A DNA stretch of 64,000 bases from Mobula hypostoma (Eukaryota), in contig NC_086108.1 of the NCBI RefSeq assembly GCF_963921235.1, positions 15,376,001 through 15,440,000 on the forward strand. The letters are read 5' to 3'. Below, piece by piece: positions 4,254-47,455 of the stretch. Both the position numbers and the translations under genes were made by a program. Positions within the stretch are counted from its first letter, which is position 1. Each line of letters begins with the position of its first letter. The notes below the pieces were generated by a model. The model was not told the DNA's origin, ran no database searches, and saw only the letters and a list, made by a program, of their open reading frames with translations.

Positions 4254-6380
4254 CACATATACAGCTAAGATAGACTGGCAAATGACACTTAAAGGATTGA
4301 CGGTGGATATGCAATGGCAAGCATTTAAAGGTTGCATGGATGAACTACAACAATTGTTCGTCCAGTTTGGCAAAAGAATAAATCAAGGAAGGTAGTGCAC
4401 CCGTGGCTGACAAGAGAAATTAGGGATAGTATCAATTCCAAAGAAGAAGCATACAAATTAGCCAGAGAAAGTGGCTCACCTGAGGACTGGGAGAAATTCA
4501 GAGTTCAGCAGAGGAGGACAAAGGGCTTAATTAGGAAGGGGAAAAAAGATTATGAGAGAAAATTGGCAGGGAACATAAAAACTGACTGTAAAAGCTTTTA
4601 TAGATATGTAAAAAGGAAAAGACTGGTAAAGACAAATGTAGGTCCCCTACAGACAGAAACAGGTGAATTGATTATGGGGAGCAAGGACATGGCAGACCAA
4701 TTGAATAATTACTTTGGTTCTGTCTTCACTAAGGAGGACATAAATAATCTTCCAGAAATAGTAGGGGACAGAGGGTCCAGTGAGATGGAGGAACTGAGCG
4801 AAATACATGTTAGTAGGGAAGTGGTGTTAGGTAAATTGAAGGGATTGAAGGCAGATAAATCCCCAGGGCCAGATGGTCTGCATCCTAGAGTGCTTAAGGA
4901 AGTAGCCCAAGAAATAGTGGATGCATTAGTGATAATTTTTCAAAACTTGTTAGATTCTGGACTAGTTCCTGAGGATTGGAGGGTGGCTAATGTAACCCCA
5001 CTTTTTAAAAAAGGAGGGAGAGAGAAACCGGGGAATTATAGACCGGTTAGCCTAACGTAGGTGGTGGGGAAACTGCTGGAGTCAGTTATCAAAGATGTGG
5101 TAACAGCACATTTGGAAAGCGGTGAAAGATAGAATTTTTTGAGGATGTAACTAGTAGAGTGGATAGGGGAGGACCAGTGGATGTGGAATATTTGGATTTT
5201 CAAAAGGCTTTTGACGAGGTCCCACACAGGAGATTAGTGTGCAATCTTAAAGCACACGGTATTGGGGGTAAAGTATTGATGTGGATGGAGAATTGGTTAG
5301 CTGACAGGAAGCAAAGAGTGGGAATAAACGGGACCTTTTCAGAATGGCAGGCGGTGACTAGTGGGGTACCGCAAGGCTCAGTGCTGGGACCCCAGTTGTT
5401 TACAATATATATTAATGACTTGGATGAGGGAATTAAATGCAGCATCTCCAAGTTTGTGGATGACACGAAGCTGGGTGGCAGTGTTAGCTGTGAGGAGGAT
5501 GCTAAGAGGATGCAGAGTGACTTGGATAGGTTGGGTGAGTGGGCAAATTCATGGCAGATGCAATTTAATGTGGATAAATGTGAAGTTATCCACTTTGGTG
5601 GCAAAAATAGGAAAACAGATTATTATCTGAATGGTGGCCGATTAGGAAAAGGGGAGGTGCAACGAGACCTGGGTGTCATTATACACCAGTCATTGAAAGT
5701 GGGCATGCAGGTACAGCAGGCGGTGAAAAAGGCGAATGGTATGCTGGCATTTATAGCGAGAGGATTCGAGTACAGGAGCAGGGAGGTACTACTGCAGTTG
5801 TACAAGGCCTTGGTGAGACCACACCTGGAGTATTGTGTGCAGTTTTGGTCCCCTAATCTGAGGAAAGACATTCTTGCCATAGAGGGAGTACAAAGAAGGT
5901 TCACCAGATTGATTCCTGGGATGGCAGGACTTTCATATGAAGAAAGACTGGATGAACTGGGCTTGTACTCGTTGGAATTTAGAAGATTGAGGGGGGATCT
6001 GATTGAAACGTATAAAATCCTAAAGGGATTGGACAGGCTAGATGCAGGAAGATTGTTCCCGATGTTGGGGAAGTCCAGAACAAGGGGCCACAGTTTGAGG
6101 ATAAAGGGGAAGCCTTTTAGGACTGAGATTAGGAAAAACTTCTTCACACAGAGAGTGGTGAATCTGTGGAATTCTCTGCCACAGGAAACAGTTGAGGCCA
6201 GTTCATTGGCTATATTTAAGAGGGAGTTAGATATGGCCCTTGTGGCTACGGGGATCAGGGGGTATGGAGGGAAGGCTGGGGTGGGGTTCTGAGTTGGATG
6301 ATCAGCCATGATCATAATAAATGGCGGTGCAGGCTCGAAGGGCCGAATGGCCTACTCCTGCACCTATTTTCTATGTTTCT
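4254..6380 (+). mobile_element. 5'-truncated CR1 LINE inserted in L1 ORF2
   Basis: KSPGPDGLHP, YLDFQKAFD, GVPQGSVLGP, KFVDDTK, LVRPHLEYCVQFW; 3' tail ctattttctatgtttct; ATATA on both sides (4249-4253, 6381-6385) restores L1 ...ASYKPIS. Confidence 0.93.
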
Positions 6381-6791
6381 ATATAAGCCTATATCCCTGT
6401 TGAATGTGGATTCCAAGATTTTTTCTAAAGTATTAGCAACTAGATTGGAGAAGGTATTGCCTCAAATTATTTCTGTTGATCAGACTGGATTCATTAAAAA
6501 TCGTTATTCATTTTTTAATATTAGGAGGTTAATGAATATTGCTTATACCCCTTCATCTAGAATTCCAGAATGTGTCATTTCACTAGATGCTGAGAAAGCA
6601 TTTGACAGAGTTGAATGGACATATTTATTTACTATGCTTGAGAAATTTAACTTAAGACCGATATTTATATCTTTATATATTTATATTTTATATTTATATA
6701 TTTAATATATCTTACCCCTTCGGCGTCGGTATTTACCAATAGTCAAAGATCTCCCTTTTTTCAGTTGTTTCATGGCACCAGGCAAGGTTGT

Positions 6792-13280: not shown

Positions 13281-13471
13281 AATCACAGAGAAAATCTGCA
13301 GATGCTGAGGATCCAAGCAACAGACACAAAATGCTGGAGGATCTCAGCAGGCCAGGCAGCATCTATGGAAAAAGAGTACAGTCGACTTTTCGGGCCAAGA
13401 AGCGTCGAATGTACTTTTTTCCATAGATGCTGCTTGACCTGATGAGTTCCTCCAGCATTTTGTCTGTTCTT
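13281..13471. mobile_element. Miniature palindromic Penelope-like-derived insertion
   Basis: Inverted arms (caaaatgctggagg...catctatggaaaa / ttttccatagatg...cctccagcattttg); 12-bp TSD aaagctagtccc at 13269-13280 and 13472-13483. Confidence 0.8.
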
Positions 13472-21529: not shown

Positions 21530-21705
21530 ATGAGGAAATCTGCAGATGCTGGAAATTCAAGCAACACACACAAAATGCTGGTAGAACACAGCAGGCCAGG
21601 CAGCATCTATAGGAAGAGGTACAGTCGATGTCTCAGCCCGATGCGTCGATTGTACCTCTTCCTATAGATGCTGCCTAGCCTGCTCTGTTCTACCAGCATT
21701 TTGTG
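21530..21705. mobile_element. Miniature palindromic Penelope-like-derived insertion
   Basis: Inverted arms around a centre at ~21635; 16-bp TSD tggattgactgtgaac at 21514-21529 and 21706-21721. Confidence 0.85.
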
Positions 21706-22088
21706 TGGATTGACTGTGAACTCACTTTCATGAACTTTAGTTCTAAATGTTGTTTGCTTTTTTTTTATTACATGCACAATTTATTTTTCTTTCACATTGG
21801 GTGTTTTATGGTCTTTTTAAATATGTTCTATTAAGTTTCTTTGTTTTTTGGTTCCCTGTAAGGAGATGAATCTCAAGGTTGTAATAGTGCACATACTTTG
21901 ATAATAAATGTACTTTGAACTTTGTACTTAAAGCAGCATCATGGGCACATAACATCAGATAAGCAGCGTTCATAAGAAAAACAAACATATTGACAAGAAA
22001 TTATTTCTGCAATTAGAACAAGGTCCATTGTAGTGAAAAGTGGTTGCAGTATTGCTTTTCATAGATAACGATTAGGGATGTGCTAGTT

Positions 22089-28864: not shown

Positions 28865-28927
28865 GTAATATTCTTATAAACTGATTGATGTAGTTCTTAT
28901 TAAGGTTGGTTAGCTATAATAATGATG

Positions 28928-29106
28928 ACACAAGAGACTGCAAATCCCAGGATCTGGTTAAAAAGCAAACTGCTGGAGGAATTCAACAGGCTAGGCATCA
29001 TCTGTGGCAGTCGAAGTTTTGGTTCTCAGCCTGAAATGTTGATCATCCCTTTGCCTCCATGGATATTGCTTGACCCACTGAGTTCATACAGCAGTTCGCT
29101 TTTTGC
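28928..29106. repeat. Degenerate miniature palindromic Penelope-like-derived element
   Basis: ctgctggaggaattcaacagg / ctgagttcatacagcag inverted arms with cctgaaatgttga remnant at the centre. Confidence 0.55.
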
Positions 29107-29934
29107 TACAGTAATGATGCATTTCTTACTTTCACTGCAAGTTGGTGCATTTTATAAATTCTCATCATCTTTGCTTCGTTGCCATGATTCTGTGATGTCT
29201 CGCCCAGCTGTTCATTCCTAATTGTGAAAGCTGGCAGAATATTTGATTGATCATGCTTCCTACACACGCTTTAGTATAGTTTATAGGTTGCTGTCATTAT
29301 ATTTGATTTTGTTTACTTGTTTTCCCCCACACCCCTCCCAGCCATTCTGTGCATGGATTCTGAAGGAGCTGTGTCAGAGAATTTGGGTGGGAGAAAGGAG
29401 GAAGATTACACTACCATATCAAAGTGCAGCATTCCATAACAGATCTGTTGAAAGGTGAAAGTACTCGACACAGAAAATGTGTTTCCTGGTAGTGAGCAGA
29501 GTTCTGTAGCAGCCAAGTCTGGCTAAGTGTTGCCCTTGTGATTTGTGATGAGAGATCAGGAGTCAGGATTCTCTTCACACACGGTCAGGAAACGTCGACA
29601 CGCCATATCCTTCCACAGATGCTGCCTTGTTTGCTGAGTTCAACTAGCATCAAGTTTGTTGTCTTCCCATTGCTTGAAAATTCTGATTACAATGAAACTC
29701 CAATCATCTGTTGTCTGACTTTAGGAATTGACCTAATTAAATTCTGTTCCACGTGTGGCAGCAAATTGTAATCGTATTACTGGTATTTTCAAGCTATTGT
29801 ACAACATTGGATGTGTTTTGGAGAGTCTGCATTCCTATTGCCTTGAGTAAAACAACAACTTCCATTTATGTAACACACCTAAAGCATCACAAGGTCCCAA
29901 AGTACTGGCATGATGCAGAAGATATATATAAAAG

Positions 29935-32005
29935 CGTGAGATATAGGAGCAGAAGTAGGCCATTTGGCCCGTTGAGTCTGTTCCGCCATTCAATCATGGG
30001 CTGATCCAATTCTTCTAGTCATCCCCACTCCCCTGCCTTCTCCCCATACCCTTTGATGCCCTGGCTAATCAAGAACCTATCTATCTCTGCCTTTAATACA
30101 CCAAATGACTTGACCTCCACAGCTGCACCCTCTGACTAAAGTAGTTTCTCCGCATCTCTGTTCTAAGTGGACGTTCTTCAATCCTGAAGTGGTGCCCTCT
30201 TGTCCTAGACTCCCCTACCACAGGAAATAGATTGCCATATCTAATCTGTTCAGGCCTTTTAACATTCAGAATGTTTCTGTGAGATTCCCCCTCATTCTCC
30301 TGAACTCCAGGGAATACAGCCCAAGATTTACCAGATGTTCCTCATATGGTAACTCTTTCATTCCTGGAATCATTCTTGTGAACCTTCTCTGAACTCTCTC
30401 CAATGTCAGCATATCCTTTCTTAAATAAGGAGCACAAAACTGCACACAATACTCCAAGTGTGGTCTCACGAGCGCCTTATAGAGCCTCAACATCACACCC
30501 CTGTTCTTACATTCTATACCTCTAGAAATGAATGCCAACATTGCATTCGCCTTCTTCACCACCGACTCAACCTGTAGGTTAACTTTTAAGGTATCCTGCA
30601 CAAAGACTCCCAAGTCCCTTTGCATCTCTGCATTTTGAATTCTCTCCCCATCTAAATGATAGTCTGCCCATTTATTTCTTCCACCAAAGTGCATGATCAT
30701 ATTCTTTCCAACATTGTATTTCATTTGCCACTTCTTTGCCCATTCCCCAAAACTATTTAAGTCTCTCTGCAGGCTCTCTGTTTCCTCAACACTATCTGCT
30801 CTTCCACCTATCTTTGTATCATCGGCAAATTTAGCCACAAATCCATTAATTCTATAGTCCAAATCATTGACGTACATCATAAGAAGCAGCAATCCCAACA
30901 CCAACCCTTGTGGAACTCCACTGGTAACTGGCAGAATATGATCCCTGTATTCCCACTCTTTGTTTTCTGCCATTCAGCCAATGCTCCACCCATGCTAGTA
31001 ACTCCCCTGTAATTCCATGGGCTCTTAACTTGCTAAGCAGCCTCATGTGCGGCACCTTGTCAAAGGCCTTCTGAAAATCCAAGGGCACCACATCTACTGC
31101 ATCTCCTTTGTCTACCCTACCTGTAATTTCCTCAAAAAATTTGCAGTAGGTTGGCCAAGCAGGATTTTCCTTTCAGGAAACCAGGCTGGCTTTGGTCTAT
31201 CTTGTCATAAGCCTCCAGCTTCCTGAGCACCTTCTCAGTCATAATTTTCATGGCACATACTTCACTTCCCTGACATGCTTGAATGTCCGGTATACTGCAG
31301 ATATCTTTCACTGTGAAGACTGATGCAAAATATGCATTCAGCACCTCTGCCGTCTCTGCATCTCTCATTACAATATCTCCAGCGTCATTTTCTATTGGTC
31401 CTATATGTACTCTCGACTTTATTTTACCCTTTATATACTTAAAAAAGCTTTTAGTATCTTTGATATTAGTTGCCAGTTTCCTTTTATAATTCATCTTTTC
31501 CTTCCTAATGACCTTCTTAGTTTCCATCTGTAAGTTTTTAAATCCCAATCTTTTATTGCCCACTAGGTTTAGCTGCCTTGTATGCCCTCTCTTTTGCTTT
31601 TACTTTGGCTCTGACAGGGTAGTGTCCTTCTTCCATTAGAAAATTTCTTCTTCTTTGGAATATATCTGATTTGCAGTTCCCTCATTTTTCGCAGAAACTC
31701 CAGCCATTGCTGCTGTGCTGTCCTTCCTGCTAGTGTCCCTTTCCAGTCAACTTTGGCCAGTTCCTCTTTCATGCCATTGTGATTTCCTTTATTCCACTGA
31801 AATACCGATACATTGGAATTTAGTTTCTCCTTCTCAAATTTCAAAGTGAACTCGATCATATTGTCCCTAAGGGTTCCTTAAACTTAAGCTCTTTTATCAC
31901 CTCCGGATCATTGCACAACACAGCTGATTCCCTAGTGGGCTCAACAACAAGATGTTCTAAAAAGTCATCCCTTAGACATTCCACAAATTCTCTCTCTTGA
32001 GGTCC
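29935..32005 (-). mobile_element. CR1 LINE, truncated and internally deleted
   Basis: LDFQKAFDKVPH, GVPQGLVLG, KFADDTK, LVRPHLEYCVQF on the minus strand; CR1 3' tail near 29940. Confidence 0.9.
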
Positions 32006-32184
32006 AATATATATAGCTATTTTACAGTTTGTTTTAGAAGTTCATTATAAATTGAGAGGCTGCACCAGTTGAATCCAGGAAAATGTTCCTATTATAACAT
32101 TTTGACTGCCTATATTATTCAAATAATATTTGGCTCATTTGATGTGCAGCTATTAGCTTTTGTGTGTTTTGGAGTGTTATAGAA

Positions 32185-34715
32185 CTGAGAGACCTAGGAA
32201 TGCAAGTACATAGTTTGTTAAAAGCAGCATCACAGGTTAATACAAGGTGTTGGGCATGTTAGCCTTTAGTCAAGGCATGAAGTTTAAGACAAGGGGTGAT
32301 ATGGTGCAATTACATAAGTTATTGCCAAGGCCATTCTTGGGGGTACTATATACAGTTTTGGTTACCCTGTTATATAGGAAAGATGTAATTAAATTAAAAA
32401 GTGCAGAAAAAATATACTGGATGTTGCCCGGACTTGGGGGCCTGAGATGCAAGGAGAAGTCATGTAGGCAATACAGCGTAGGAGCAGAATTAAGTAATCG
32501 GCCCATCAAGTCTGCTCCACCACTTCATCATGGCTGACCCATTTCATAGTAGTCGTACTTTATTGATCCCGAGGGAAATTGGTTTTCGTTACAGTTGCAC
32601 CATAATTAATTAAATAGTAATAAAACCATAAATAATTAAATAGTAATATGTAAATTATGCCAGGAAATAAGTCCAGGACCAGCCTATTGGCTCAGGGTGT
32701 TTGACCCTCCAAGGGAGGAGTTGTCTCAATCTCCCTCTCAACCCCAATCTCCTGCCTTCTCCCCATAACCTTTCACACCCTGAAAAATCAAGTACCTATC
32801 AACCTCTACCTTAAATTCACCCAGTGACCTGGCTTTCCCAGCTGCCTGTGACAATGAATTCTGCAGGTTCACTGCTCTTTGGCTAAAGAAATGCCTCCTC
32901 ATCTCCATTCTAAATGGACGTCCCTCTATTCTGAGGCTGTTCCCTGTGGTCCCAGGCTCCCCAACTACAGGAAACATCCTCTCCACATCCGCTCTATCTA
33001 GACCTTTCAACATCCGATAGATTTCAATGAGATCCTCCCGGATTCTTATAAACTCCAGCGAGTACAGGCCCGGAACTATCAAGCACTCCTCCTCTGAACC
33101 CTCTCCAATGTCAGCATATCCTTTCATAGATAAGGGGCCCAAAGCTGCTTACAATACTGCAAGTGAGGCCTCACCAGTGCCGAAAAAGCCTCAGCATTAT
33201 ATACTTACTTTTATATTCTACTCCTCTCAAAATGCATTTACCTTCCTCACCACCGACTCAACCTGCAAGTTAAGCTTTAGGGAATCATGCAAAAGGACTC
33301 CTAAGTCCCTTTGCACCTTGGATTTTTGAATTCTCTCCCCATTTAGAAAATAGTCTATGCTTTCATTCCTTCTACCAAAGTGCATGACCATACACTTCCC
33401 AGCACTGTATTCCATCTGCCACTTCTTCGCCCATTTTCCTAATCTGTCTGAATCTTTCTGCAGCCTCCCCACTTCCTCAATACTACCTGCCCCTCCACCT
33501 ATCTTAGTATCGTCCACAAACTTGGCCACAAGGCCATTAATTCCGTCATCCAAATAATTGACATACAATGTAAAAAGAAGTGGACTCAATACCAACCCCT
33601 GTGGAATGCCACTAGGAATGAGTAGCCAACCAGGAAAGGCCCTCCTTATTTCCACTATTTGCCTCCTGCCAGTCAGCCAATGTTCTATCCATGCTAGTAT
33701 CTTTCCTGTAATACCATGGGCTCTTATCTTGCTAAGTAGCCTCGTGTAGCATCTTGTCGATGGCTTCTGAAAATTCAAATGCAAAGCATCAACCAATTCT
33801 CCTTTGTTTATCCTGCTTGTTATTTCTTCAAAGAATTCCAATAGATTTGTCAGGCAAGATTTTACCTTAAGGAGACCATACTGACTTTGGCCGATTTTAT
33901 CATGTGCCTCCAAGTACACCGAAACATCATCCTTAACAATTGACTACAACATCTTCCCAACCACTGAGGCCAGGTTATTTGGCCTATAATTTCCTTTCTC
34001 CTGCCTCTCTGCTTTCTTGAAGAGTGGAGTGACATTTGCAATTTTCCAGTCTTATGGAATCATTTTAGAATCTATTAATTCTTGAAAGATCATTACTAAT
34101 GCTTCCATAATTTCTTCAGCTATCTCTTTCAGAACCCTGGAGTGTAATCCATCTGGTCCAGGTGATCAGACCTTTCAGCTTCCTAAGCATTTTCTCCCCA
34201 GTGATGGCAACTTCACTGACACCCTGACACTCTCGAACTTCCTGCATACTGCTGGTGTCTTCCACAATGAAGAACGGTGAAAAATACTTATTCAGTTTGT
34301 GCGCCATTTCCTTGTTTCCCCATTACTACCTTTACAGTGTCATTTTCCAGTGGTCCGATATCTACTCTTGCCTCTCTTTTACTCTTTCTATATCTGAAAA
34401 AGTGATATAAACAATATAAAACTATAACTATATAAAGTGTAGACTCCAACTTTACTTCCTGGAATGTTAAGAGAATGAGGAGTGACCTGATAGAGGTATA
34501 AGGTCATGAGGGGCATGGACAGAGTGAAAGCATGTAGTTATTTTCTCAGGGTGCTAAAAACAAACAGGTTTAAGATCAGAGGTGAGTGATTTAAAAGGGA
34601 CATCTGATGCAGCCTTTTCATACAGAGTATTTGAAATGAGCTGTCAGAAATGGAGGTTGAGGCCGGCACATTAGCAGCATTTAAAAGCCATATAGATAAC
34701 TACATGCATAGAAAG
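32185..34715. mobile_element. Nested cluster: old + strand CR1 (~32185-32470, resuming ~34441-34715), interrupted by a - strand CR1 (~32478-34422), which is interrupted by a Rex1-type 3' tail (~32546-32723)
   Basis: CR1 RT motifs on both strands (KSCLTNLLEFFEE, KFVDDTK); the 32546-32723 insert matches the 3' end of the element at 7622. Confidence 0.8.
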
Positions 34716-35103
34716 AGGTCCTACTTGTTATTTATTTATTTATGTATTTGTGCAGTTTGTTGTCTTTTGCACATTGGTGGTTTGTCAGTCTTTGTAGTTT
34801 TTCAATGATTCTCTTACATTTCTTTCTTCTACTGTGAATACCTGCAAGAAAATGAATCTCTGGGTAGTGTATATGTACTTCGATAATAAATTTACTTTGA
34901 AGCTTAAGTCAGAATCAGGTTAATTATCACTGACATGTTATGAAATTTATTGTTTTGCAGCAGCGGTACAATGCAGTGCTTAAAATACAAGTTACAATAA
35001 GAAATATATTTAAAAAAAACATAGTGCAAAAAGAGAAAAAATGGTCAGGTAGTGCTCATGAGTTCAGGGTTCATTCAAACATTTGGTTCTGTGTGCGAAA
35101 CAC

Positions 35104-35134
<31 letters not shown>

Positions 35135-35153
35135 TGTGTGTCTGTCTGTCTGT
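35104..35153. repeat. (TG)n/(TCTG)n microsatellite
   Basis: Direct reading. Confidence 0.95.
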
Positions 35154-36024
35154 CTTCAGGCTCCTGTATTACCTCCCTGATGGTAGCAATGAGACAAGGG
35201 GATGTCCTGGGTGGTGAGAATCCTTTGAAGATGTTCTCAGTATTGGGGAGGCTGAGTTTACAAGCCTCTGCTGATTTTTCCAATCCTGTGCATTGGTACC
35301 TTAATACCAGACGGTGATACTCTCCAAGGTATATCTGCAGAAATTTGCTAGAGTCTTTGGTGATGTACAAAATGTCCTTAAACTCCTAATGAAATATAGT
35401 TGCTGGTGTGCCTTCTTCATAATTGCCTCAATATGTTGAGCCCAGGATAGATATGTTGACACCCAGGAACTTGAAGCTGTTCATCCTTTCCACTGGTGAC
35501 CCCTTGATGAGGACTGGTGTATGTTCTCTTGCCTTACTCTTTCTCCTGATGTTAGAGGGCTATGGGCCAAGTGTGGGTAGATGGGGCTTCCATGCTGCTC
35601 AACACAGTCAGCATGGATAAGTTGAACCTAAACTCCCTCTCTCTGGTTCAAACCCCTCCCACACCTATGCTGTTTGATTCTTATGTCAAAGGTATAACTT
35701 TAATATTGAGTTTTTTAACCCCAGTAAAGTAAAAGCTGCAGGAAATGCAGTCGGTCAGGTTCACAGATCTGTCATTGAATGAAATGCATGTACGTTGGGG
35801 AAAGAAAGAGATGTTTTTTTATTTCTCATGCTCTTGATCCGAGGATGATAGATCTTGAAGCATAATGGCTCAAATTTTTCTGACCATGGCATTTTATTCA
35901 TATTATTCTCCAGCCTGTTTATATTTGAGGGCATTAAAGGAAGCAAGTGAGGAAATTGTGTACGTTTGAGACGTAATCTTCTAAATCTGTTAGAATTAAA
36001 GGATTACTAAGAATAAATAAATGC

Positions 36025-36770
36025 AAATATAAAGCAACCCACACAAAATGCTGGAGGAACCCAGAAGGTCAGGCAGCATCTATGGAAATGAATAGATAGT
36101 CGACATTTTGGGCCGAGACCCTTCTTCAGGACTGAGAAGGAAGGAGGAAAATGCCAGAATAAAAATGTGGGGAGAGGAAAAGAGACTAGCTGGAAGGTCA
36201 TAAGTGAAACTAGGTGGGTGGGAAAGATCAAGAGCTGGCGAAGAAAGAATCTGATAGGAGAGGAGAATGGACGATAGGAGAAAGGGAAGAGGAGTGGACC
36301 CAGTAGGAAGAAATATGTAAGAAATGAAAAGTCAGAGTGGAGAATAGGGTGTAGGGGTTAGGTTTCTCGAAGGAGAAATCAATATTCATGCCATCAGGGT
36401 GGAGAGTACCAAGATGTTGCTCCTCCATCCTGAGGGTGGCCTGGGAATGGGAATTAAAATGTTTGGCCACTGGGAAGTCCCGCTTGTGGCAGATAGTGTG
36501 GAGGTGCTGGACGAAGTGGTTCCCAATTTACGCGAGTCTCGCCAATGTAGAGGAGGAGCATCAGAAGCATTGGACACAATGGACAACCCCAGCAGGTTTT
36601 CAGGTGAAGTGTTGCCTCACCTGGAAGGACTGTTTGGGGACATGAATGGAGGTGAGGGAGAATGTGTATGAGCAGGTATCCTTGCACTTGGGGTGCTTGC
36701 AGGGATAAGTGCCTGGAGGGAGATTGGTGGGGAGGTATGAATGAACAATGGAATCGTGGAGGGAAGTGCA
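36025..36770 (-). mobile_element. Penelope-like element 3' fragment including GIY-YIG endonuclease remnant
   Basis: LLYIGETR, AKHFNSHS, LRMEEQHL..LHPDGMNIDFS; degenerate hammerhead at 36098-36134 (-). Confidence 0.8.
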
Positions 36771-37496
36771 AATATACTATTTTTAAAATGAAGTCTATAG
36801 GACAGAGTGAACATTTGGAAATTTAAACTGATTAAAATTGTGTAGCATATCTATTAGTAGTCAAGGGAAAACCTTTGAATGAGTTTTTTGTAGACTGCTC
36901 AAGGACAGAACTGTTGCACATAAGAGATTGCTAGCTGAAATTGAAATGGAATTTAATATGCATTATTGCTCTGATTTAGGAGATTGGCTAGTCAGGTTTC
37001 TTCTGCAGAATGCAAGTAGAATGCTGTTCACTCAGTTTCATGAATGTAACAGCTAGTATTAATCGTTGCTTGGGTAGTTTCGGAGGGGCTAATATTATGA
37101 GTGTTGAGCAGCAGTTAAAACCAGTTACTACCAATCAATGTTTACCAGCATCTTTTAAATGGCTGGAGCATGAGCTAGCAGGTGTACTACACTGAATAAC
37201 GGCACATCCCAGGAAAGCAAAGGTGCTGGTTGTCTGATTCACATAGGAGGATATGGAGTATGAAGAGTTCTCCTTTATTTGCAGCAAGCTCTCCATGCTC
37301 ACTATAAAGATGCTGAGAGTGCAAGTGGAGGTTGGAGAAGACAGTTCGGGCCCTGGTGAGATCCTGCCTTACCGAGGCCACTTTCTTGTGCGAGCCCTAT
37401 ACCCCTTGATTCAATACCACCTAAAAAATTATCAAGTTTAGTCTTGTAAATACTAGGTGTAACCCTCAGGCTCGCCCAGCTTGCGTTCGTCTAAGG

Positions 37497-38632
37497 CAGG
37501 GGTCCCCAACCTTTCTCGCACTGCGGACCGGTTTCATATTGAGAATATTCTTGCGGACCGGCGGATGGGGGGGGGGGCAGTGGTGGTAGGGTTGCCAATG
37601 GACAAGAGTAGCAGTCAAATACGCTGGGTTTTCCCCAGGAAAGACTACAATGACCATGAAACCATGCGTGATTTGGCATGCGTGTACGATTTTTTTCTAC
37701 AAATCGTTTTTGGCGATTCTGTTCGGGGGGGGTCTTATTCATGACTGGAATATCGGTGATAAGTGGCTAATACACTCAATTTCCTTTCTAAAAGGGTTTA
37801 TCTAACAAATTTAATATTAAACACACAGTGCATATTTTCCTCGCATGAATATAGTGATAAGTCAATTATCAGGGGAGCTTGAAATAAGTGTTGAACGAAC
37901 TTCCAGTAGAACTGGTAGAGGCAGGTTCGATATTATCATTCAAAGAAAAATTAGAGTAGCGTTAAAATTAGAGTAGGTGAGAGTAGCGTTCGGCACGGAC
38001 TAGAAGGGGAGAGATGGCCTGTTTCCGTGCTGTAATTGTTATATGGTTATATAAGTCAATAGCATTATAATATTTTAAGTAACCTTTGGATATTAAACAC
38101 GCAGCGCATGTTTTTCCCGTATGAACATATGAAAGCATTGCAACACACCAATATCGCTGAATCAGTGGGAGCCCTGGGCTTGTGTTCCTGCAACAACACG
38201 GTCCTATCGAAGGGTGATGGGAGACAGCGAATGGGAGACAGCGATAGTTGAACGGGGTTCCTTATGTCCAGTCTGTTCCGCAGTTTAGTTTTCGTTGCAT
38301 TCATTGCAGAGATATGTTGGAAATGGAAGCAACCTTTTCAGTGCTTTCGTGGCTACCTCAGGATTTTTAGCCTTGACTTTGATCCAGAATGCCGGCAGAG
38401 ATGTTATGTCAAACATACTTTCCAGCCCGCCGTCATTTGCAAGCTCGAGGAGTTGATCTCCTTTCCGCGCTGACGTGGATGACGCGCGGGTAATGACCTC
38501 GCATGCGTAATGGCTCAACAGTGGCCGTGACAGGGAATGAGGGAAGGTGCAGCTAACTCATATCGCCAAATCACATAACTGCCTCGCAGCCCGGTAGTGC
38601 ATGCTTTGTGGCCCGGTGGTTGGGGACCGCTG
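37497..38632 (-). mobile_element. Non-autonomous hAT (Charlie/Buster-type) element with transposase C-terminal remnant
   Basis: TIRs caggggtccccaacc / ggttggggaccgctg; TSD gtctaagg (37489-37496) / gtctaggg (38633-38640); LPAFWIKV..PEVATKALKRLLPFPTYLC dimerisation-domain remnant; small CR1 3' piece inside at ~37880-38050. Confidence 0.85.
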
Positions 38633-38712
38633 GTCTAGGGGAATCGGCCTTCGGCCCCGCCAAACTGGGTAATCACGTTTGTGTGGATGCTGTGTAATAC
38701 ACCCCCAGTTAC

Positions 38713-39393
38713 AAACCCAGACTCCCTGTCGTGGTCTTCTAGAGCATCCACTAAGAGGGCTTCACCCTCAGGCACTCTGGGAAATTTGGGGGTCCCCATC
38801 ACTCTCGCTACTTCCCCGGGCCGTACCACCATTGGCTTCGACTGGGTGAACCACACAGTCCCTCGTTTAAATTTGGCATCCGGCCCAATGCTGCCACACA
38901 CTTCCTCAAAGGCAGCTCAAAACACTGGGTGCACGGACAATATTCCCAAAAAACTCTCACTCTTCACTGGGGGATTGGGACTAATTAAACTTTCCAAGTC
39001 TGCCCACTCTTACCCCTCATTCCTCAGAAACGATAGAACCCTGTCTCTGAAATCTCTGCCCCCAACTGCAGGCAACTCAGCTTGTGACCCAGCCTGCTGG
39101 GCTCCCTTCTCTTCCTCCCTGACAGTATGGACACGCCATGGCCCCGCCTCACCTGGGTCACCAATAGACGTTGGCAGACCCACCGCTGTTACGTCAGCGC
39201 TAGTCTGAACTAAAACAAGGTCTGAGCCTGCCATGTTGTCAAACTTTCGCACTATGATTTCAACCTTGCCAACATCTGTACAACTGTACACAAACATCGA
39301 ATTAACAATTCATCCGGGGTATGAATATCCACACCACTCAACACACACGCATTAATTACCGGCAATCCCACAGAGGCACACCACTGCTGTAAC
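38713..39393 (-). mobile_element. Gypsy gag remnant of PNMA type, with a probable LTR at ~37458-38712 split by the hAT element
   Basis: GKVEIIVRKFD..DLVLVQT...GPWRVH...DFRDRVLSFLRNEG resembles the PNMA/Gypsy gag N-terminus; tgtaac...gttaca termini around the hAT insertion. Confidence 0.55.
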
Positions 39394-39734
39394 TCAGCAG
39401 CATCCATACCAGCAGAGATTTACAGATTTAAACAGGGCAGTCACACAGCGTTCAACGGAATCAATCCAGGACGTAGCCCTCAGGGAAGCATGGAAGGTTT
39501 TGAACTCATCTGGAAACAAAGCCCTACTGTCTCTCATATCACTTGATTCAACTTTATAAGAGGTAATAGTATTCAAGCTCTGCCACAACTGTGAAGCCTC
39601 CTTTGTTGATTCAAGTTTGGTTTGGAATTGCAACTTCACCTGTGGAATGGCTTTACAGTGATCATACTGAACCTCTGGTGCTACACGTTTATGCTGATGG
39701 TAATTGGGCATCATAAATAAATCTTTACTGATGG

Positions 39735-40520
39735 AGATCAGATATTTGCAATTAATGTCAGAGAAATGTATACAATATACATCCTGAAATTCTTTTTCTT
39801 CGCAAACATCCACGAAAACAGAGGGGTGCCCCAAAGAATGAATGACAGTTAAACGTTAGAACCCCAAAGCCCTCCCACGCACAGGCAGCAAAGCAACGAC
39901 CCCCCACTTCCCCCCCACCAGCAAAAACCTGCACCCTCCACCAAGCACTCAAGTGTGCAGCAAAGCATCAGTAAAGACACAGATTTGCAGTACTCAAAAG
40001 ACTGCTCGTTCACCCATTAATTCGAGATATCATAGGCTCGCTCTCTCCCTAATAAAGGAAAAAGAGGTGTCCCTGTTTCACAGCGAGAGGGGAGACATAA
40101 CAAAACAACTCACTGATCTAAGTCTGTTGCGTCACTTTTTCCGAGTTTTGTGCCCAAAGAGTATCTGGACACACATCCAGCAGCCAGCCCGCTGCTTTCG
40201 ATCTTCTGTGTACTCCCATGGCACATCAGGCAGCGGCACTGGCCTCGAATCTGCCTGCCTCCAGAGCCACGAAGATCTGGCAACCTGAAGACACGCTAGT
40301 CTTCAAAGCTGCATCATTGGCATATTGAAAAGCGGCCGGTCGTGAGGCCCTGAGAGTGGGTCCCATTTCCGCCAAGAACCGAAGTCAACGTGTAACTCCA
40401 GGTCAGGGTCTTCAAAAGAATCCTGAAAAGGAAAAAAAGAGATATTAAAGATAGAAATAGAGCTGTTTCTGAAGATGCAAACAAAGGAGTTGCCGTTAGG
40501 TGCCATCATCCTAAGCTCTG
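39735..40520 (-). repeat. Non-coding interspersed retroposon (related copy at ~50830-51790, 3' fragment at ~15855-15910) inside a decayed Rex1-type fragment
   Basis: Shared segments agagaaatgtatacaatat.catcctga, gtgccccaaagaatga.tgaca and gtaactccag.tcagggtctt between copies. Confidence 0.65.
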
Positions 40521-40947
40521 TGCAGTATTCCAGATGCTATCCTAGCAAGGCAGCAAAACGTCTTTCCTCTCAAGCACACTTCAATAAAGGCCAGTGTTCC
40601 ATTTACCTTTCTAATTAATTGCTGCTTTTGCATGTTAACTTTGTGCAAGGACATCCTTATCCCCAAGATACCAACACTTTCCAATCACTTACCATTTAAA
40701 AAAGTCACATTTTTGCACATCATTACACTGTCTCCATATCCTTGTTTAATCACTTCATCTCTGCATGTCTGTCTAAAGATGAGATTGTGCAGATGCTGGA
40801 AATCCAGAGTAACACAGTTAAAATGCTGGAGGAACTTAGCAGGGCAAGGAGTATCTGTGGAAAGGAATAAAGAGTTGAAGTTTAGGGCTAACACCCATTC
40901 TGATGAAGGGTCTTGGCCTGAAACGTTGACTCTTTATTCCTTTACAT

Positions 40948-43519
40948 CAGGGATGGGCAACCTATGGCGCATTGGATGATTAGAAGTGGCGCATTGCACC
41001 CCAGTGATAATAATAAAAAAATAAGCCTACTCATGCAAAAGGTATTAACCAAAAACAGATTTGTAGCAAAAAATATCTATAACAGGAATTCAAGTAGCTT
41101 AGAGCTAGAAATGGGTTTTACTGAGAATAAATCTAAAACTTAGCAATTATTTTTAGCGATTTTATTATTTCGTGCACGCCTTTTGGCGAATGTTATCTTC
41201 TTTCACATTAATCTGTTTACAATTAAAAAAAATGTTCAATGAGTAAAACTAGGAAAGAAGGACTTTTGTTCTGCAGTCATTCCATAACTGTTCAATACAC
41301 ATTTGGTACTTGTTTGATCCTGAGGTGCCAGGCGTCTGCACCAGCGGTGCATCGCAGGTTTTTACCAGTCAGTTTACAATTGACACTCGTGCACTGCGGA
41401 GTTGTCCTTTGTGAACATTTGCAGTTTTGTACTTTTTTGAAAATTAAGCCTTGTTTTTACATTCAGTTACCCATCACAGTGTAAAAGAAAATGAGCAAAA
41501 GAAAAGCAGAAAGTGATAGTAAGCGTGAATTCAATGAGCAGTGGGAAAATGAGTTCTTATTTATAGCGGGTCCGTCTGGAAAACCATTGTGCATTGTTTG
41601 TGAAAACACTTTTTCACATAATAGAAGACATGATCTTAAAAGACACTATAAAACACAACATCAGACTGAAATAGAAGGAAAACTGAAGCTAGTGCTTGGG
41701 TCTGAGTTACGGAAAGAATATGTGATTAAGAAAAAGAAATCAAAAGAAGACAAAATATATTTGTTAAAAGAAGTTGTGAAAGTTTGGCGATGACAGAAGT
41801 GTCCTACGGAATTGCTTTAGCATTGGCCAAAAAACGGAAGTCTTTCTCTGATGGAGAAGAAATTGTTAAGCCTTGTCTCCAAATATTTGCAAGATGTCTT
41901 GGTGATAAAAATATCGAAAGGAAAGTAGACAAAATTGCTCTGTCAAAGCAAACCGTTACGAGACGCACTAAAGAACTCTGTCATGATGTATCTGAGCAAC
42001 TGAAAGACCTTGTCCGTGCTTGTACTTTCTTTTCTTTAGCTTTGGACGAATCTGCTGACATATGTGATGTAGCCCAGTTAAGCATTTTTATAACAGGAAT
42101 TGATAATTTTAGCATCTTTGAAGAACTTATCTGTCTTGTCGCTTCATAGAAAAACAAGAGAATCAGACATATTTGACAAAGTAAAATCATGCCTAGAAAA
42201 TCTACAACTAGATTCTAGTAAGTTCATTGGTGTTTGTACTGACGGAGCACCGTCAATGATAGGTAAAGCCACTGGGACTACAACTTTGCTTGAAAACTTT
42301 TTAGGTCGTCCTCGACTAAAATATCACTGCATTATACACCAAGAGTCACTGTGTGGAAAAACTTTAAACTTGCAGCATGTTTTGTTACTGGTTTGAAATG
42401 CGTGAATAAAATTAGAGCAAGAGGATTAAACAGACGAGTTCAGAGAATATTGTGGCATGTTAGATTTGGAATATGGCAATCTCGTCCTTCATTGTGAGGT
42501 GTCTCAGCTTTCTAGAGGACAGGTTCTGAGTAGATTTTGGAAACTGAAAAATACTGTCATAATTTTCTAGAAGAGAAAAATGAGCTGCCTGAGGAAAGAG
42601 CCCTTTTATGTGATAACAATTGGCTATTTGATTTAGCGATTTTTGTTGATGTTACCAACCATCTCAATAACCTAAATTTGAAACTCCAGGGCAAGAACAA
42701 ATTGTTTCTTAGCTTAGTAAATGATGTCAATACATTCAAGATGAAGTTAAAACTGTTCACCTCTCAGTTAAAAAATGAGGATTTGGCCAGTTTCCACACT
42801 TAAAAGAGCAGAGTGAATGTGCTGAAGATAATTACAATTTTACAAAATATATTGAAAAAATCAGGTTATTGCAAGGGTCATTTGAAAGTCATTTTTGTGA
42901 TTTTGCTAAAGAAGAAGACTACATACTTGCATTTATAAACCCATTTAGTGAAAATGACCCACTAAGTGATAGTGAACAAAAAATCATGAAGATGTCTAGT
43001 TAACATACAAATGCAACTTATTGACTTGAAAACAAATTCATTATTGAACATGAAACTTGATGAGCTTCCCTCAGTCCCAAATGTTTCTGACATGATTAAT
43101 TTCTGGCGATCATTACCCTGTGAACGTTTTCCAGAACTAAGAAAATTTGCCCAGAGTTATATCTGTCGTTTCGGAACAACGTACAGATGTGAACAAGTAT
43201 TTTCAGACATGAAATTGATTAAAAACAAAACGAGGCACAATTGACTGATTCAAATTTGAAGAATTCTGTGCTGCTCTCAGTAATTAATTTAACTCCAAAC
43301 ATTAAAAGCTTGGTAAAATCAAAACAGACTCAAAAGTCTCATTAAGGTAAGTAATGTTTATATTGTTTTTATATTAAATCAATATATCATGTAAAAATGC
43401 TAAATATGTCTATATTAATGTATTACAAGAATTGAATGGGGGTACAGGAGTTGTAGGGCGCATCTGAACTCGTGCCTGAAAAAATTGACTCATGGAATAT
43501 AAAAGGTTGGCCACCCCTG
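40948..43519 (+). mobile_element. Full-length hAT DNA transposon (Buster/Charlie group, GTF2IRD2/SPIN-like transposase pseudogene ~41491-43345)
   Basis: Perfect 8-bp TSD ctttacat (40940-40947, 43520-43527); imperfect 16-bp TIRs cagggatgggcaacct / aggttggccacccctg; BED-like CIVC..HYKTQH, SLALDES, VCTDGAPSM, HCIIHQESLC, FGTTYRCEQVFS; several frameshifts. Confidence 0.93.
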
Positions 43520-43813
43520 CTTTACATAGATGCTGCCTGACCTGTTGAGTTCCTCCAGCATTTTTGTGTGTTACTTTGTCGGTGTCTTCCTTACAACCCA
43601 CACTGCCATCTAGCTGTAGTTCCCCATTATTTCTGAAAGGTTTTCTGTATCTTTGTGGTGAAAATAGGCAACACATTTATTTAATTTCTTTTCTGCTTCC
43701 CAGTTCCTCTTAGTAATTCTTTCTACCTCATTTCACATTTCATGAAGTAATTTCCTTTTCACATTTCTACATAAATTCTTGCAATCTTTGTCTTCCACTT
43801 ACTGTTGTTTTCT

Positions 43814-43957
43814 TAAAAATGCAAACAACAGGAACTCTGCAGGTGCTGGAAATTCAAGCAACACACATCAAAGTTGCTGGTGAACGCAGCAGGCGACTGT
43901 ACCTCTTCCTAGAGATGCTGCCTGGCCTGCTGTGTTCACCAGCAACTTTGATGTGTG
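43814..43957. mobile_element. Miniature palindromic Penelope-like-derived insertion
   Basis: Arms acacacatcaaagttgctggtgaac / gttcaccagcaactttgatgtgtgt; 15-bp TSD ttactgttgttttct at 43799-43813 and 43958-43972. Confidence 0.85.
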
Positions 43958-44771
43958 TTACTGTTGTTTTCTACTTTTTTGTCTTTATTTATTGTAACTT
44001 ATAGCAATTTTTATATCTTGTTCTGTACAGCTGTTGCAAAATTTCCTGACATGTAATTGACACATTGTAGGCTAAAGGGCCTGTGCTTTACCGTTCTATG
44101 TTCTATAATAAACCCGATTTTGATTCAATGCCTTGTTCCATTTTTGCTGAGTGCTGACATTTTCCTAGATCTTTTCTTTAGTATTCAGTAGCAGTATTAA
44201 AAACCTTTGATCTAGTATTGTCTTTCAGTTTATAGTTGTTCCAGTTTTTCTGCTGCTATTCATTTGCCTTAATATGATGTAATGTATTGAATCTTTAAGG
44301 TTCCCACCAGATTACGCTTCATGCTTTGAGCCCTAGTTTCAGACTGAACAAAAACACCTTAAATTCCTATGTAGCACTGTTGTAGAATACTCAGTGATAA
44401 TGTTCACAGTGACTCCTTAACTAGTAATTAATCACTTAACCCTTTCTTATCACACATTTCTCGTGTTAAAATAGCTTCATTGGTTCCTGTATATCCTGAT
44501 GTGGAAAACTGCTACTAATACAGGCTATGCATTTGTTTTTACACTATTACTGTTCCTTTGGATTGCCCAGTTAACATATAGAGCAAAGCTTGTATGTTTA
44601 TTGCATTACCTTTATTATTTGCATCCTTACTTTCCAGATTTACGACGCCCTGGTATTCCACTACTTAACTCCAATTCCCACTGATGTTTCCTGGCCCTCA
44701 TTGTTTCTCAGCTCCATCAAAAATGATTCCAGCTACAATCCTTCTCTCTACAACCTTTAATTGTTGAGTCT

Positions 44772-44878
44772 TAAACACAAACTACTCTGCAGATGCTGGG
44801 GACAAAGCAACACTCTCAACATGCTGGAGGAACTCAGCAGGTTGGGCAGCATCCATGGAAACGATCAGTCAACATTTC
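44772..44878 (-). mobile_element. Short Penelope-like terminal fragment with TSD
   Basis: ctgcagatgctgg...gctggaggaactcagcagg...gtcaacatttc; flanks aattgttgagtct / aattgttgggtct. Confidence 0.65.
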
Positions 44879-45671
44879 AATTGTTGGGTCTATCCCTTTT
44901 CCATTTTCCCATCTAAATGTTGAGAATCCTGGAATATACAATTCCTAACTGGGTCAGTTTGCAACTACGTTCCACTAATGTTAATTGGACTGTTCCAATC
45001 AGTGTCAGGTTTATGACCCAAATGCTGCAGAAAATTCTAAATGGTGTGCCTGCATGCCTTGATCTGTGAGCTGTCAATAATAGATATGGATTTTATTTGA
45101 TTGTGCTGATCTATAATTTCCCTGTGTCATACTCTTGTTCTTTTCCAGAATATACTTAAAAGGGAATACTTAATTGTTCATTAGAGACTAACAGTATTTG
45201 CATAGTTTGGAATTTACAATAAGTGTATATTTTGAGATCTTGGTGTATATTTTCTTCATAATGTGCTGTGGAAAGTTTTGTACATGAAATACAGATTTTC
45301 TACTCCATTCTGTAATGAAATTGGCATAATTATTGTCTCTGAATTCACTTAAAAACAATAATTTATAGCTTGCAGATCTGACAATTTCTGTCCAAAGAAA
45401 GAAATTCTTTCCAACATGTTCATATTACTTGTGTCATTTTCAATAAAATCTGTTTTATTCTACAAATTCCACAAACTCATGAGATCCTGCCTCCTGCAAC
45501 CCACATGGAAAACCTTAAGTGCATTTACAATTTGCCAGCCTTTTGGTATTCCACTGTAGAATGAGAAATGGCTGAGGTTTCAAAATAAATATGGTTTTGA
45601 TTCAGTTGCTGAAGCTATAAGGGAATGTCATGCTTTCAAGTCGGGGCATAGTTTTCAGCACTTTGATAGTT

Positions 45672-45935
45672 GATGCCACAGTGGCGCAACAGTTAATGTT
45701 GCTCCTGCACAGTTCCAGCAACCCATATTTGATGCGGACTTTCAGTGCTGTGTGCATGGGGTTTACAGGTTCTCTTTGTGACCATGCAGATTTCCTCTGG
45801 GTGCACTGGTTCCATCCCACATACCAGAGATGCAATGATGAGTTATTTGACCCAGTATAAATTGCCTCTAGTGTGGTTAACTGGCTGATGGGAGATGGAG
45901 GATGATAGGAATATGAAAGCAAATGGAGTGCAGGA
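45672..45935 (+). mobile_element. Old tRNA-derived V-SINE (HE1-like)
   Basis: cacagtggcgcaacagtta head and the V-domain-like gatttcctctgggtgcactggttccatcccaca. Confidence 0.6.
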
Positions 45936-46047
45936 GAATGAATTGAGGCAAACAACAGGAATTCTGCAGATGCTGGAAATTCAAGCAACATACATCAAAG
46001 TTGCTGGTGAACGCAGCAGGCCAGGCAGCATCTGTAGGAAGAGGTGC

Positions 46048-46083
46048 AGTCGACGTTTCAGGCTGAGACCCTTCGTCAGGACT
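46048..46083 (-). ncRNA. Minimal type-I hammerhead ribozyme motif (mirror copy)
   Basis: Reverse complement reads AGUC CUGACGA AGG gucucag CCU GAAAC GUC GACU. Confidence 0.72.
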
Positions 46084-47100
46084 AACTGAAGGCAGAGTGA
46101 GTAAGGGATTTGAAAGTTGGAGGGGGAGGGGGAGATGCAAAATGATAGGAGAAGACAGGAGGGGGAGGGATAGAGCCGAGAGCTGGACAGGTGATAGGCA
46201 AAAGGGGATATGAGAGGATCATGGGACAGGAGGTCCAGGAAGAAAGACGGTGGGGGGGGGTGACCCAGAGGATGGGCAAGAGGTATATTCAGAGGGACAG
46301 AGGGAGAAAAAGGAGAGTGAGAGTTGCATAAAAATGAGTAACAGATGGGGTACAAGGGGGAGGTGGGGCCTTAGCGGAAGTTAGAGAAGTCGATGTTCAT
46401 GCCATCAGGTTGGAGGCTACCCAGACGGAATACAAGGTGTTGTTCCTCCAACCTGAGTGTGGCTTCATCTTTACAGTAGAGGAGGCCGTGGATAGACATG
46501 TCAGAATGGGAATGGGATGTGGAATTAAAATGTGTGGCCACTGGGAGATCCTACTTTCTCTGGCGGACAGAGGTAGATGTTCAGCAAAGCGGTCTCCCAG
46601 TCAACATCTACGCTCTGTCCGCCAGAGAAAGCAGGATCTCCCAGTGGCCACACATTTTAATTCCACATCCCATTCCCATTCTGACATGTCTATCCACGGC
46701 CTCCTCTACTGTAAAGATGAAGCCACACTCAGGTTGGAGGAACAACACCTTGTATTCCGTCTGGGTAGCCTCCAACCTGATGGCATGAACATCGACTTCT
46801 CTAACTTCCGCTAAGGCCCCACCTTCCCCTCGTACCCCATCTGTTACTCATTTTTATGCAACTCTCACTCTCCTTTTTCTCCCTCTGTCCCTCTGAATAT
46901 ACCTCTTGCCCATCCTCTGGGTCACTCCCCCCCTTGTCTTTCTTCCCGGACCTCCTGTCCCATGATCCTCTCGTATCCCCTTTTGCCTATCACCTGTCCA
47001 GCTCTCGGCTCTATCCCTCCCCCTCCTGTCTTCTCCTATTATTTTGGATCTCCCCCTCCCCCTCCAACTTTCAAATCCCTTACTCACTCTTCCTTCAGTT

Positions 47101-47136
47101 AGTCCTGACGAAGGGTCTCGGCCTGAAACGTCGACT
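47101..47136 (+). ncRNA. Minimal type-I hammerhead ribozyme motif (PLE-associated)
   Basis: AGUC (stem I) - CUGACGA - AGG gucucgg CCU (stem II) - GAAAC - GUC - GACU (stem I'); complete catalytic core; stem III reduced to the palindrome ACGU; predicted cleavage after C47132. Confidence 0.75.
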
Positions 47137-47388
47137 GCACCTCTTCCTACAGATGCTGCTTGGCCGGCTTCGTTCACCAGCAACTTTGATGTATGTTGAA
47201 TGAATTGAGGCAGTGAGGTTCTTTGGAAGTCTCTGAGAGCAGTAGGACACCATAGGCCAAACAATCTCTTGTGCTGTAAGGAAATGTTACAATAGGACAC
47301 ATAAGTTTATGGTCAAAGTAGGTTAGTTGCAACTTCCCTTTTCTGTTTGAAGTACTGTTTGATGTTTTCTGTGTTTTGTGTTTTTTAG

Positions 47389-47455
47389 ATGTTTTGGTAT
47401 GCTTTTGAGCCCAGGGACAAATGTGCGGAATAGTGACATGCACCTGCTTGACATG
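47389..47455 (+). CDS. RABGAP1L: RABGAP1L internal coding exon D
   Basis: ttttttag|A acceptor, ATG|gtgag donor; 67 nt (phase 2 to 0); CFGMLLSPGTNVRNSDMHLLDM; too short for the ORF track. Confidence 0.92.

Follow-up and report, generated by a model that had tools for sequence, protein, structure and literature searches.

A truncated, folded-back Penelope-like element with a minimal hammerhead motif of known type, likely inactive, in a RABGAP1L intron of Mobula hypostoma

The insertion in RABGAP1L

The window analyzed here is a stretch of 64,000 nucleotides of the Mobula hypostoma genome (contig NC_086108.1, positions 15,376,001 to 15,440,000, forward strand), and coordinates given without a locus name refer to it. 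Exons of RABGAP1L follow one another on the plus strand at ~24366, 27485, 28749, 47389, 52220, and 55020. A 55-residue exon is 94–98% identical to ray proteins named RABGAP1L, and a PDB sequence search with a 22-residue exon gave no match. The intron considered here is flanked by exons that match consecutive residues of protein P0005 (281–325 and 319–344; tblastn), and near its 3′ end it holds an insertion of a Penelope-like element (PLE), the parts of which are given in Table 1. The first-pass annotation of the window had named RABGAP1L as the host and placed a hammerhead ribozyme motif some 250 nt upstream of an exon. Both statements hold, the predicted cut site being 257 nt before the exon start.

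Table 1. Coordinates of the insertion, of its minimal hammerhead ribozyme (min-HHR) motifs, and of the surrounding intron and exon
Feature	Position	Strand	Basis or remark
RABGAP1L intron holding the insertion	28865..47388	+	tblastn of P0005; GT and AG read in the sequence
Left target-site duplication, 14 bp	45937..45950	.	14-mer within the window only at 45937 and 47199
Inverted arm: end of endonuclease frame, pyrimidine-rich pseudo-LTR, hammerhead, long tail	45951..46603	-	antisense PLE 3′ end; inner boundary (46603) set by eye
min-HHR motif, antisense to host pre-mRNA	46048..46083	-	intact core; blastn, descriptor
Last PLE ORF codons, 5′-truncated (end of GIY-YIG endonuclease region), and stop	46604..46814	+	translation
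Pyrimidine-rich 3′ UTR/pseudo-LTR	46815..47100	+	acceptor-like cag at its end, two bases before stem I
min-HHR motif, sense	47101..47136	+	core descriptor, blastn, folding, published consensus
Plus motif, stem I	47101-04/47133-36	+	4 bp
Plus motif, C3-A9	47105-11	+	extra A after A9 at 47112
Plus motif, stem II	47113-16/47121-24	+	4 bp
Plus motif, G12-A14	47125-27	+	
Plus motif, palindromic ACGU	47128-31	+	
Plus motif, cut site	after C47132	+	predicted
Short tail	47137..47198	+	3′ end of the insertion
Right target-site duplication, 14 bp	47199..47212	.	copy of the 14-mer at 45937
RABGAP1L exon downstream of the insertion	47389..47455	+	92% identical to P0005 residues 319-344

The 36-mer reported on the plus strand and its mirror on the minus strand are both present, and they differ by one base of loop II. 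They are the sense and antisense arms of a single 5′-truncated, inverted PLE insertion of 1,248 bp, in which the antisense arm runs into a long tail and the sense arm into a short one. The arms are 97% identical over 604 nt (blastn), and the two motifs are therefore not independent. The fragment of the element's open reading frame (ORF) is 97–99% identical to the C terminus of 149 other copies listed; on its own it has no Pfam match. The full-length copy at locus L031 has an equivalent pyrimidine-rich region, and evidence that the acceptor is used comes from just two genomic copies elsewhere.

Folding of the pre-mRNA predicts pairing of the sense motif, over its full 36 nt, with the mirror motif in the antisense arm, which in the direction of RABGAP1L is transcribed before the sense arm. 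The first-pass annotation inferred a dimer-dependent hammerhead for the family; the two copies at this locus, being on opposite strands, do not make up a dimer pair, and any transcript through it carries one sense and one antisense copy. With every base of the plus motif predicted to be taken up by the antisense arm, dimer formation by the pair and cutting of the pre-mRNA are both unlikely. The sense copy is predicted to be locked in a duplex of ~600 bp and is likely inactive, and the flagged pair is likely to be a dead passenger, as far as the predicted fold can be taken as a guide.

The insertion (45951–47198) forms a near-perfect hairpin of ~600 bp that ends ~190 nt before the splice acceptor, and this hairpin is a likely substrate, on the modeled structure, for A-to-I editing or double-stranded RNA pathways. 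The window contains at least 17 tail copies of the family (among them 13314–13467, 21558–21712, and 43851–43959), several of which are short fold-backs truncated inside the hammerhead. A second and much larger fold-back, of another repeat family, is found at ~4587–9537, with arms that reach 90–96% complementarity along separate stretches adding up to more than 1.5 kb.

Sequence and fold of the motif

Both motifs have the complete core that had been attributed to them, with CUGACGA, GAAA, the GUC triplet, and a 4-bp stem I. Both also lack a loop on stem III, where A-C-G-U stands alone and which a monomer cannot close, again as first described. The original reading of stem II as AGG/CCU with a 7-nt loop has a predicted pair probability of 0.02 and must be abandoned in favor of a register that begins with G10.1-U11.1 and comprises four base pairs and a loop of 4 nt, with one more A following A9, for which the predicted pair probabilities are 0.86–0.96. 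An extra base that separates positions 9 and 10.1 is used by 16 of the 17 matches to a min-HHR descriptor. Position 11.1 is U in both window copies, giving a G-U pair; C occupies it in 25 of the 53 copies sampled, 22 of these being among the 35 older ones; the youngest subfamily has G10.1-U11.1 instead of G-C.

The descriptor finds its 17 matches in 864 kb of genome, two of them in the window, and none in each of 10 dinucleotide shuffles. The exact 35-nt motif pattern is matched 41,774 times genome-wide and not at all in the reversed control. On these two counts, the motifs do not arise by chance. The bare core pattern is a weak criterion when used alone, with 12 matches against 6.7 expected and 12 reached in 5 of 100 shuffles, and Rfam at its gathering score gave no match in the window. 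A genome-wide count, which the first-pass annotation had proposed as a check, gives 65,202 motifs with an intact core when the loop is left free. The four degenerate copies noted earlier in the window were also recovered, with small shifts in position: that at ~17147 (17152, plus strand) has lost the 15.2/16.2 palindrome, that at 23701 (23702, minus strand) has C3>T, that at 36098 (36099, minus strand) has G12>A, and that at 40900 (plus strand) has an intact core and a broken stem I.

A minimal hammerhead of type I does lie, as first described, in the PLE's terminal repeat and past the GIY-YIG stop codon. The suggestion that its zero-loop form is an extreme one is not borne out, because the absence of helix III and loop 3 is what defines the min-HHR of Cervera and de la Pena (2014, PMC4209133). 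In Fig. S3 of that paper, by our own count, loop 3 is absent from 41 of the 56 aligned motifs, and 13 of the 56 read GAAACGUC.

The Penelope-like element family

The pattern of the young tail is matched 77,240 times genome-wide and that of the junction between pseudo-LTR (pLTR) and ORF has 372 exact matches, from which it follows that nearly all PLE copies are truncated ends. The full unit measures 3,516 bp between same-sense motifs at L031, a locus that holds ~1.7 units. At L182, an uninterrupted frame of 1,043 codons matches PF00078 with E 2.8e-5 and PF01541 with E 1.1e-3; neither match reaches the curated cut-off, and the same is true of similar matches in L033 and L036. The single ORF encodes a reverse transcriptase followed by a C-terminal GIY-YIG endonuclease, with a CX2-5CxxC linker between the two at residues 910–918 of the L182 frame. 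The family is probably of Neptune type, an assignment made by this linker, which is common to Neptune and Nematis elements. Pseudo-LTRs, inverted 5′-truncated copies, and a one-sided tail are all present. The 3′ ends of 167 young copies cluster at 57–67 and at 91–101 nt from the anchor, ~35 nt apart.

Sixty-one loci with the ORF junction were compared, 59 taken from the top of the match list and two picked for a tandem junction. A motif stands on both sides of a full unit in 26; seven have the full unit with an upstream motif that is not complete; in 14 a second motif lies within 600 nt, forming short hammerhead tandems; and a further 14 are arranged in other ways. The 1,043-codon frame is uninterrupted in 10 of the 61.

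Some individual copies have peculiarities of their own. The first in-frame ATG of the long frame (L031 5481, unit position 93) is GTG in 11 of 25 full-length copies, and the start is therefore probably the next ATG, at codon 28. Full-length copies at L042, L186, L210, and L226 have in common an internal duplication of ~210 bp (unit 810–1021) that marks a sub-lineage. L006 (8091–8200) packs three hammerhead motifs into ~110 bp, one antisense and two sense, the latter 46 bp apart.

Conservation of the core

For an estimate of conservation, copies were collected by means of the tail alone, which gave 137 matches in 864 kb and none in the reversed control. Fifteen of these were left out because the anchor start was missing or lay at a locus edge. 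Of the remaining 122, 69 were left out for a 5′ flank without pyrimidine richness; 53 were kept, and the 35 older copies among them were tested. The first-pass annotation had counted a core no better conserved than its surroundings, together with uncut dimers, against its reading, and for the core the opposite was found. Outside CpG columns, 13% of core cells (41/315) and 15% of stem cells (79/525) deviate, against 33% of cells in the 5′ flank (289/875) and 37% in the 3′ spacer (183/490), so that core and stems are conserved ~2.5 times as well as the flanks. Of the two comparisons, that with the 3′ spacer is the cleaner, since the sample filter acts on the 5′ flank, and the associated p values of ~1e-5 to 1e-4 are indicative only, the 35 rows being related and not independent. 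CpG columns inside the motif deviate in 136 of 350 cells, as expected of decay after insertion. Among the best conserved columns are A13 and A14.

Contigs from three other organisms (B, C, and D) come loose on L031 at 5389 and 5425, which are the exact borders of the motif and mark the end of the conserved block in these organisms; the loose contig ends number 36, 10, and 37 on one side and 43, 15, and 38 on the other. Compensatory changes in the stems, which hardly vary, were not seen within the family, either in the 53 sampled copies or in the 17 descriptor matches, and the structure of the motif thus rests on conservation together with the published consensus.

One core position behaves differently. 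Changes at A6 number 1,609 genome-wide and those at A14 356, a ratio of 4.5. Some 70 of the first 100 A6 variants listed are A6C, which is also found in six of the 35 older copies. A single A6C lineage was considered and is not supported, as nine A6C loci of 12 fetched (L239–L250) occur on both old and young backgrounds. The excess of A6 changes may stem from more than one source lineage or from a hot spot of mutation.

Short tandems

Four of the 61 junction loci repeat one non-homologous junction within a single insertion, L173 four times and L197, L231, and L192 twice each, with flanking duplications of 13, 9, 13, and 6 nt, respectively. L173 (3473–4735; G000:C2:157.816 Mb) consists of 4.1 units of 310 bp comprising hammerhead, tail, and ORF start, and L197 (~1502–1963; G000:C50:58.41 Mb) has 310-bp units of the same composition, with two junctions. 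In both, an unambiguous junction connects a GT at unit position 309 with the AG that precedes stem I by two bases, and this exact GT-AG join has six matches genome-wide, only at these two loci. Four sites at which full-length copies vary distinguish the two loci, which also have different subfamily backgrounds; the differences at the four sites make independent origins probable. L231 940–1476 and L192 2724–3264 (element strand) each have one non-canonical junction twice over, in units of ~262 and ~343 nt, respectively; its repetition within one insertion is as expected of copying that extends over more than a unit. Single-junction mini-tandems, in which two same-sense hammerheads stand ~200–440 nt apart, occur at L174, L178, L180, L199, L201, L206, L207, L211, L213, L214, and L223. 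Their breakpoints lie upstream at unit positions 202–437 and downstream at 0–125 nt before stem I, and L174 and L213 have a common downstream breakpoint.

These arrangements, and the exact GT-AG join common to L173 and L197, suggest small circular templates; splicing would have made a circle, or else a tandem, that was then copied repeatedly. Several details speak against this. The donor used at L173 and L197 looks weak, and a better-looking donor at 246 is unused in L173; the other tandem joins have microhomology and shared hot spots without splice signals; and the alternation of variants among the four L173 units suggests a later duplication at the level of DNA. No clear splice joint was present among 15 of the 85 contig joints listed, in contigs of runs without an RNA record. 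No common spliced upstream exon recurs among the first 100 of 502 copies that start at the acceptor, in a search whose pattern barred A at −2 and hence missed the L173 join itself.

Whether the family is now giving birth to retrozymes by way of ~300-nt spliced circles or tandems is a further idea, one that we regard as possible though on the whole not probable. Splicing would connect a donor that lies 308 nt into the unit with the acceptor two bases in front of the hammerhead, or a deletion would extend to that same region. The resulting circles or tandems of ~300 nt would hold the hammerhead, the tail in which reverse transcription starts, and the first part of the ORF, and the PLE reverse transcriptase would go round them repeatedly as it copied them into the genome. 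The same spliced circle would then have been captured twice, independently, as L173 and as L197; the two loci provide natural dimer substrates for a cleavage assay.

Cleavage and copying

The monomer is predicted to fold into a rod of −10.0 kcal/mol, in which G5–G8 pair with 15.2–17 and G12–A14 are unpaired. A double hammerhead of two motifs is predicted at −9.5 kcal/mol by a nearest-neighbor calculation that leaves out tertiary contacts, and when this fold is forced on the natural tandem at L197 it is ~20 kcal/mol worse than the free fold. These energies fit the low activity published for dimers, min-HHR monomers being inactive and dimers and trimers weakly active (PMC4209133), and also the protein-assisted cleavage in the anole, where the hammerhead of the Poseidon element PAc cuts only with protein (Frangieh et al. 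2024, PMC11167929).

The traces that cleavage would leave in the ends of genomic copies are weak. No peak of 5′ ends at the cut site was seen in 167 young copies, of which two end within 1 nt of it. Among 71 copies from loci not chosen for the motif, one ends within 1 nt of the cut site, 21 end inside the motif, and 48 pass it. Starts at the cut site behind two purines number 322 in the whole genome, a count made at that position only, and 40 of 100 such starts listed read AG-GACT, a sequence that can arise in fold-backs from microhomology in stem I. By comparison, 865 copies start at the front of stem I, so that front-edge starts exceed cut-site starts at least 5-fold when set against approximate denominators (865/41,774 versus 322/77,240). 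Since so small a number of copies begin at the cut site, the template of reverse transcription is probably RNA that is uncut or has been re-ligated. Apparent 5′-end peaks at 162 and 1068 nt were discarded as artifacts of copy extension at subfamily indels.

We consider it quite probable that the locus holds a truncated, folded-back copy of a Neptune-type PLE with a published min-HHR, likely inactive where it now stands, and that the family as a whole works broadly as follows. Of this, the anatomy of the insertion, its target-site duplication, the family, the copy number, and the conservation of the motif have been demonstrated, and the steps that follow are proposed. Source loci with the arrangement pLTR-ORF-pLTR, and with two same-sense motifs ~3.5 kb apart, would be transcribed. 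A lone motif would fold into the inactive rod, its two core strands paired. The PLE protein, bound near the start of the ORF, may help two motifs to pair by way of their ACGU palindromes, an analogy that comes from a Poseidon element and not a Neptune one, and the paired motifs would then be cut slowly after C17. Reverse transcription would begin in the tail just downstream of the motif, on a template that is mostly uncut or re-ligated RNA at that point, and frequent fall-off and fold-back would scatter tens of thousands of dead copies, single or inverted. Several observations tell against this account, among them the energy cost of the double-hammerhead fold at L197 and the 322 copies that do start at the cut site; the G10.1-U11.1 pair of the youngest subfamily and the surplus of A6 over A14 changes tell against an absolute requirement for catalysis.

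One alternative is that the element keeps the motif as a folded signal, be it a rod read by the PLE protein or reverse transcriptase or a mark of the RNA 5′ end, with cleavage incidental or lost. This we rate as unlikely. In its favor, the rod is the predicted fold of the monomer, copies start at the front edge of the motif far more often than at the cut site, and the changes at A6 are so often A6C, in older copies too; in addition, hammerhead mutants had no effect on insertion in vitro (PMC11167929), and eight of nine Xenopus retrozyme dimers did not cleave (bioRxiv 2026.07.22.740005). However, the rod leaves G12–A14 unpaired, although few columns are as well conserved as A13 and A14. The same core letters are moreover found across 40 species with unrelated stems, and min-HHR dimers of Schistosoma do cleave (both PMC4209133), and A6C is known as an active, manganese-preferring variant (PMC7151607) and so need not be dead.

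A second alternative follows the model of 2014, in which cleavage at both motifs and ligation would yield a circular RNA as the main template for reverse transcription. Copies that read straight through the cut site are what ligation would allow, and the ~1.7 units of L031 and the junctions repeated two to four times in single insertions point the same way. A linear tandem transcript with homologous template switching would, however, give the same products; the alternating variants at L173 speak for later duplication of DNA; and the exact GT-AG form of two among the repeated junctions points to splicing rather than ribozyme ligation. We consider the circle as main template unlikely. Finally, an undescribed zero-loop ribozyme whose intronic copy may cut the RABGAP1L pre-mRNA is highly improbable: the core is intact, the plus copy lies on the sense strand of the host shortly before an exon, and tens of thousands of intact copies could in principle supply partners in trans, but most published examples have the zero-loop form, this copy, with arms 97% identical, is young and one of 41,774 exact matches, and its own antisense arm, transcribed first, is predicted to sequester it.

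The flagged locus itself thus matters little, as what is likely one dead copy among tens of thousands. The role of PLE hammerheads in vivo is the question that this family can address, as it offers a very large set of young copies, many uninterrupted ORFs, and natural same-sense tandems 200–440 nt apart. Together these permit direct tests of dimer cleavage, of assistance by protein, of circle formation, and of the proposed origin of non-LTR retrozymes from PLE ends, and the short tandems are the part of the family that is worth experiment.

Comparison with known systems

Judged by its sequence, the motif is a min-HHR of the type already described and not a new variant. The consensus in PMC4209133 has an extra base between 9 and 10.1, a G10.1-C11.1 pair, and a palindrome at 15.2–16.2. 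The present family shares with the elements of 2014 the sequence GAAACGUC (in 13 of the 56), the lack of loop 3, the palindromic 15.2–16.2, the additional base that follows position 9, G at 10.1, a short stem I, and the location in the pLTR, as well as the predominance of solo copies or of copies on opposite strands 100–700 bp apart (PMC4209133). It differs in having U rather than C at 11.1 in its youngest subfamily and a stem II of 4 bp. The wider rule that PLE hammerheads usually lack helix III was stated in a review of 2017 (PMC6155905). In copy number, the 65,202 intact cores stand against ~4,000 in the coelacanth and ~9,000 in Xenopus (PMC4209133); the 120,000 retrozymes reported in the axolotl are more numerous.

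Among the 40 species listed in PMC4209133, none is a cartilaginous fish, and retrozymes have been reported in one chondrichthyan (bioRxiv 10.64898/2026.07.22.740005). A search of the literature found no report of PLE hammerheads for cartilaginous fish, although Lunse et al. may list some, or give larger counts. Lunse, Weinberg and Breaker (RNA Biol 14:1499) are said, to go by their title, to describe dimer-cleaving small hammerhead variants of PLEs, which by title alone would be of the same class, and share the same dimer mechanism, as the motif found here.

As an element, the family closely resembles the Neptune and Nematis PLEs described by Craig et al. (2021, PMC8557442), with which it shares a single ORF for reverse transcriptase and C-terminal GIY-YIG, the CX2-5CxxC linker, partial tandems, inverted 5′-truncated copies, and a tail of 30–40 bp at one end only. 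The two clusters of 3′ ends in the young copies agree with that description of PLE tails. The Poseidon element PAc belongs to another clade. It likewise has its hammerhead at the pLTR-ORF junction, copies that do not end at the cut site, and two 3′ termini, which in PAc match two start sites for reverse transcription, and in vitro uncut RNA is its main insertion substrate (PMC11167929). The ORF of PAc starts inside the hammerhead, in contrast to the long frame here, which opens ~90 nt downstream of stem I. In Penelope of Drosophila virilis, an intron ends at the 5′ side of helix I (PMC4209133).

The non-LTR retrozymes of animals (PMC7229834) are approached by L173, L197, and L231, where tandem units of 200–440 nt contain one hammerhead each. 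The window copy is an inverted pair and not a direct tandem repeat of 150–450 bp. Classical retrozymes carry canonical hammerheads and form very long arrays, whereas the arrays here have two to four units, which include the first part of the ORF. Retrozymes have been proposed to derive from the termini of PLEs (bioRxiv 10.64898/2026.07.22.740005).
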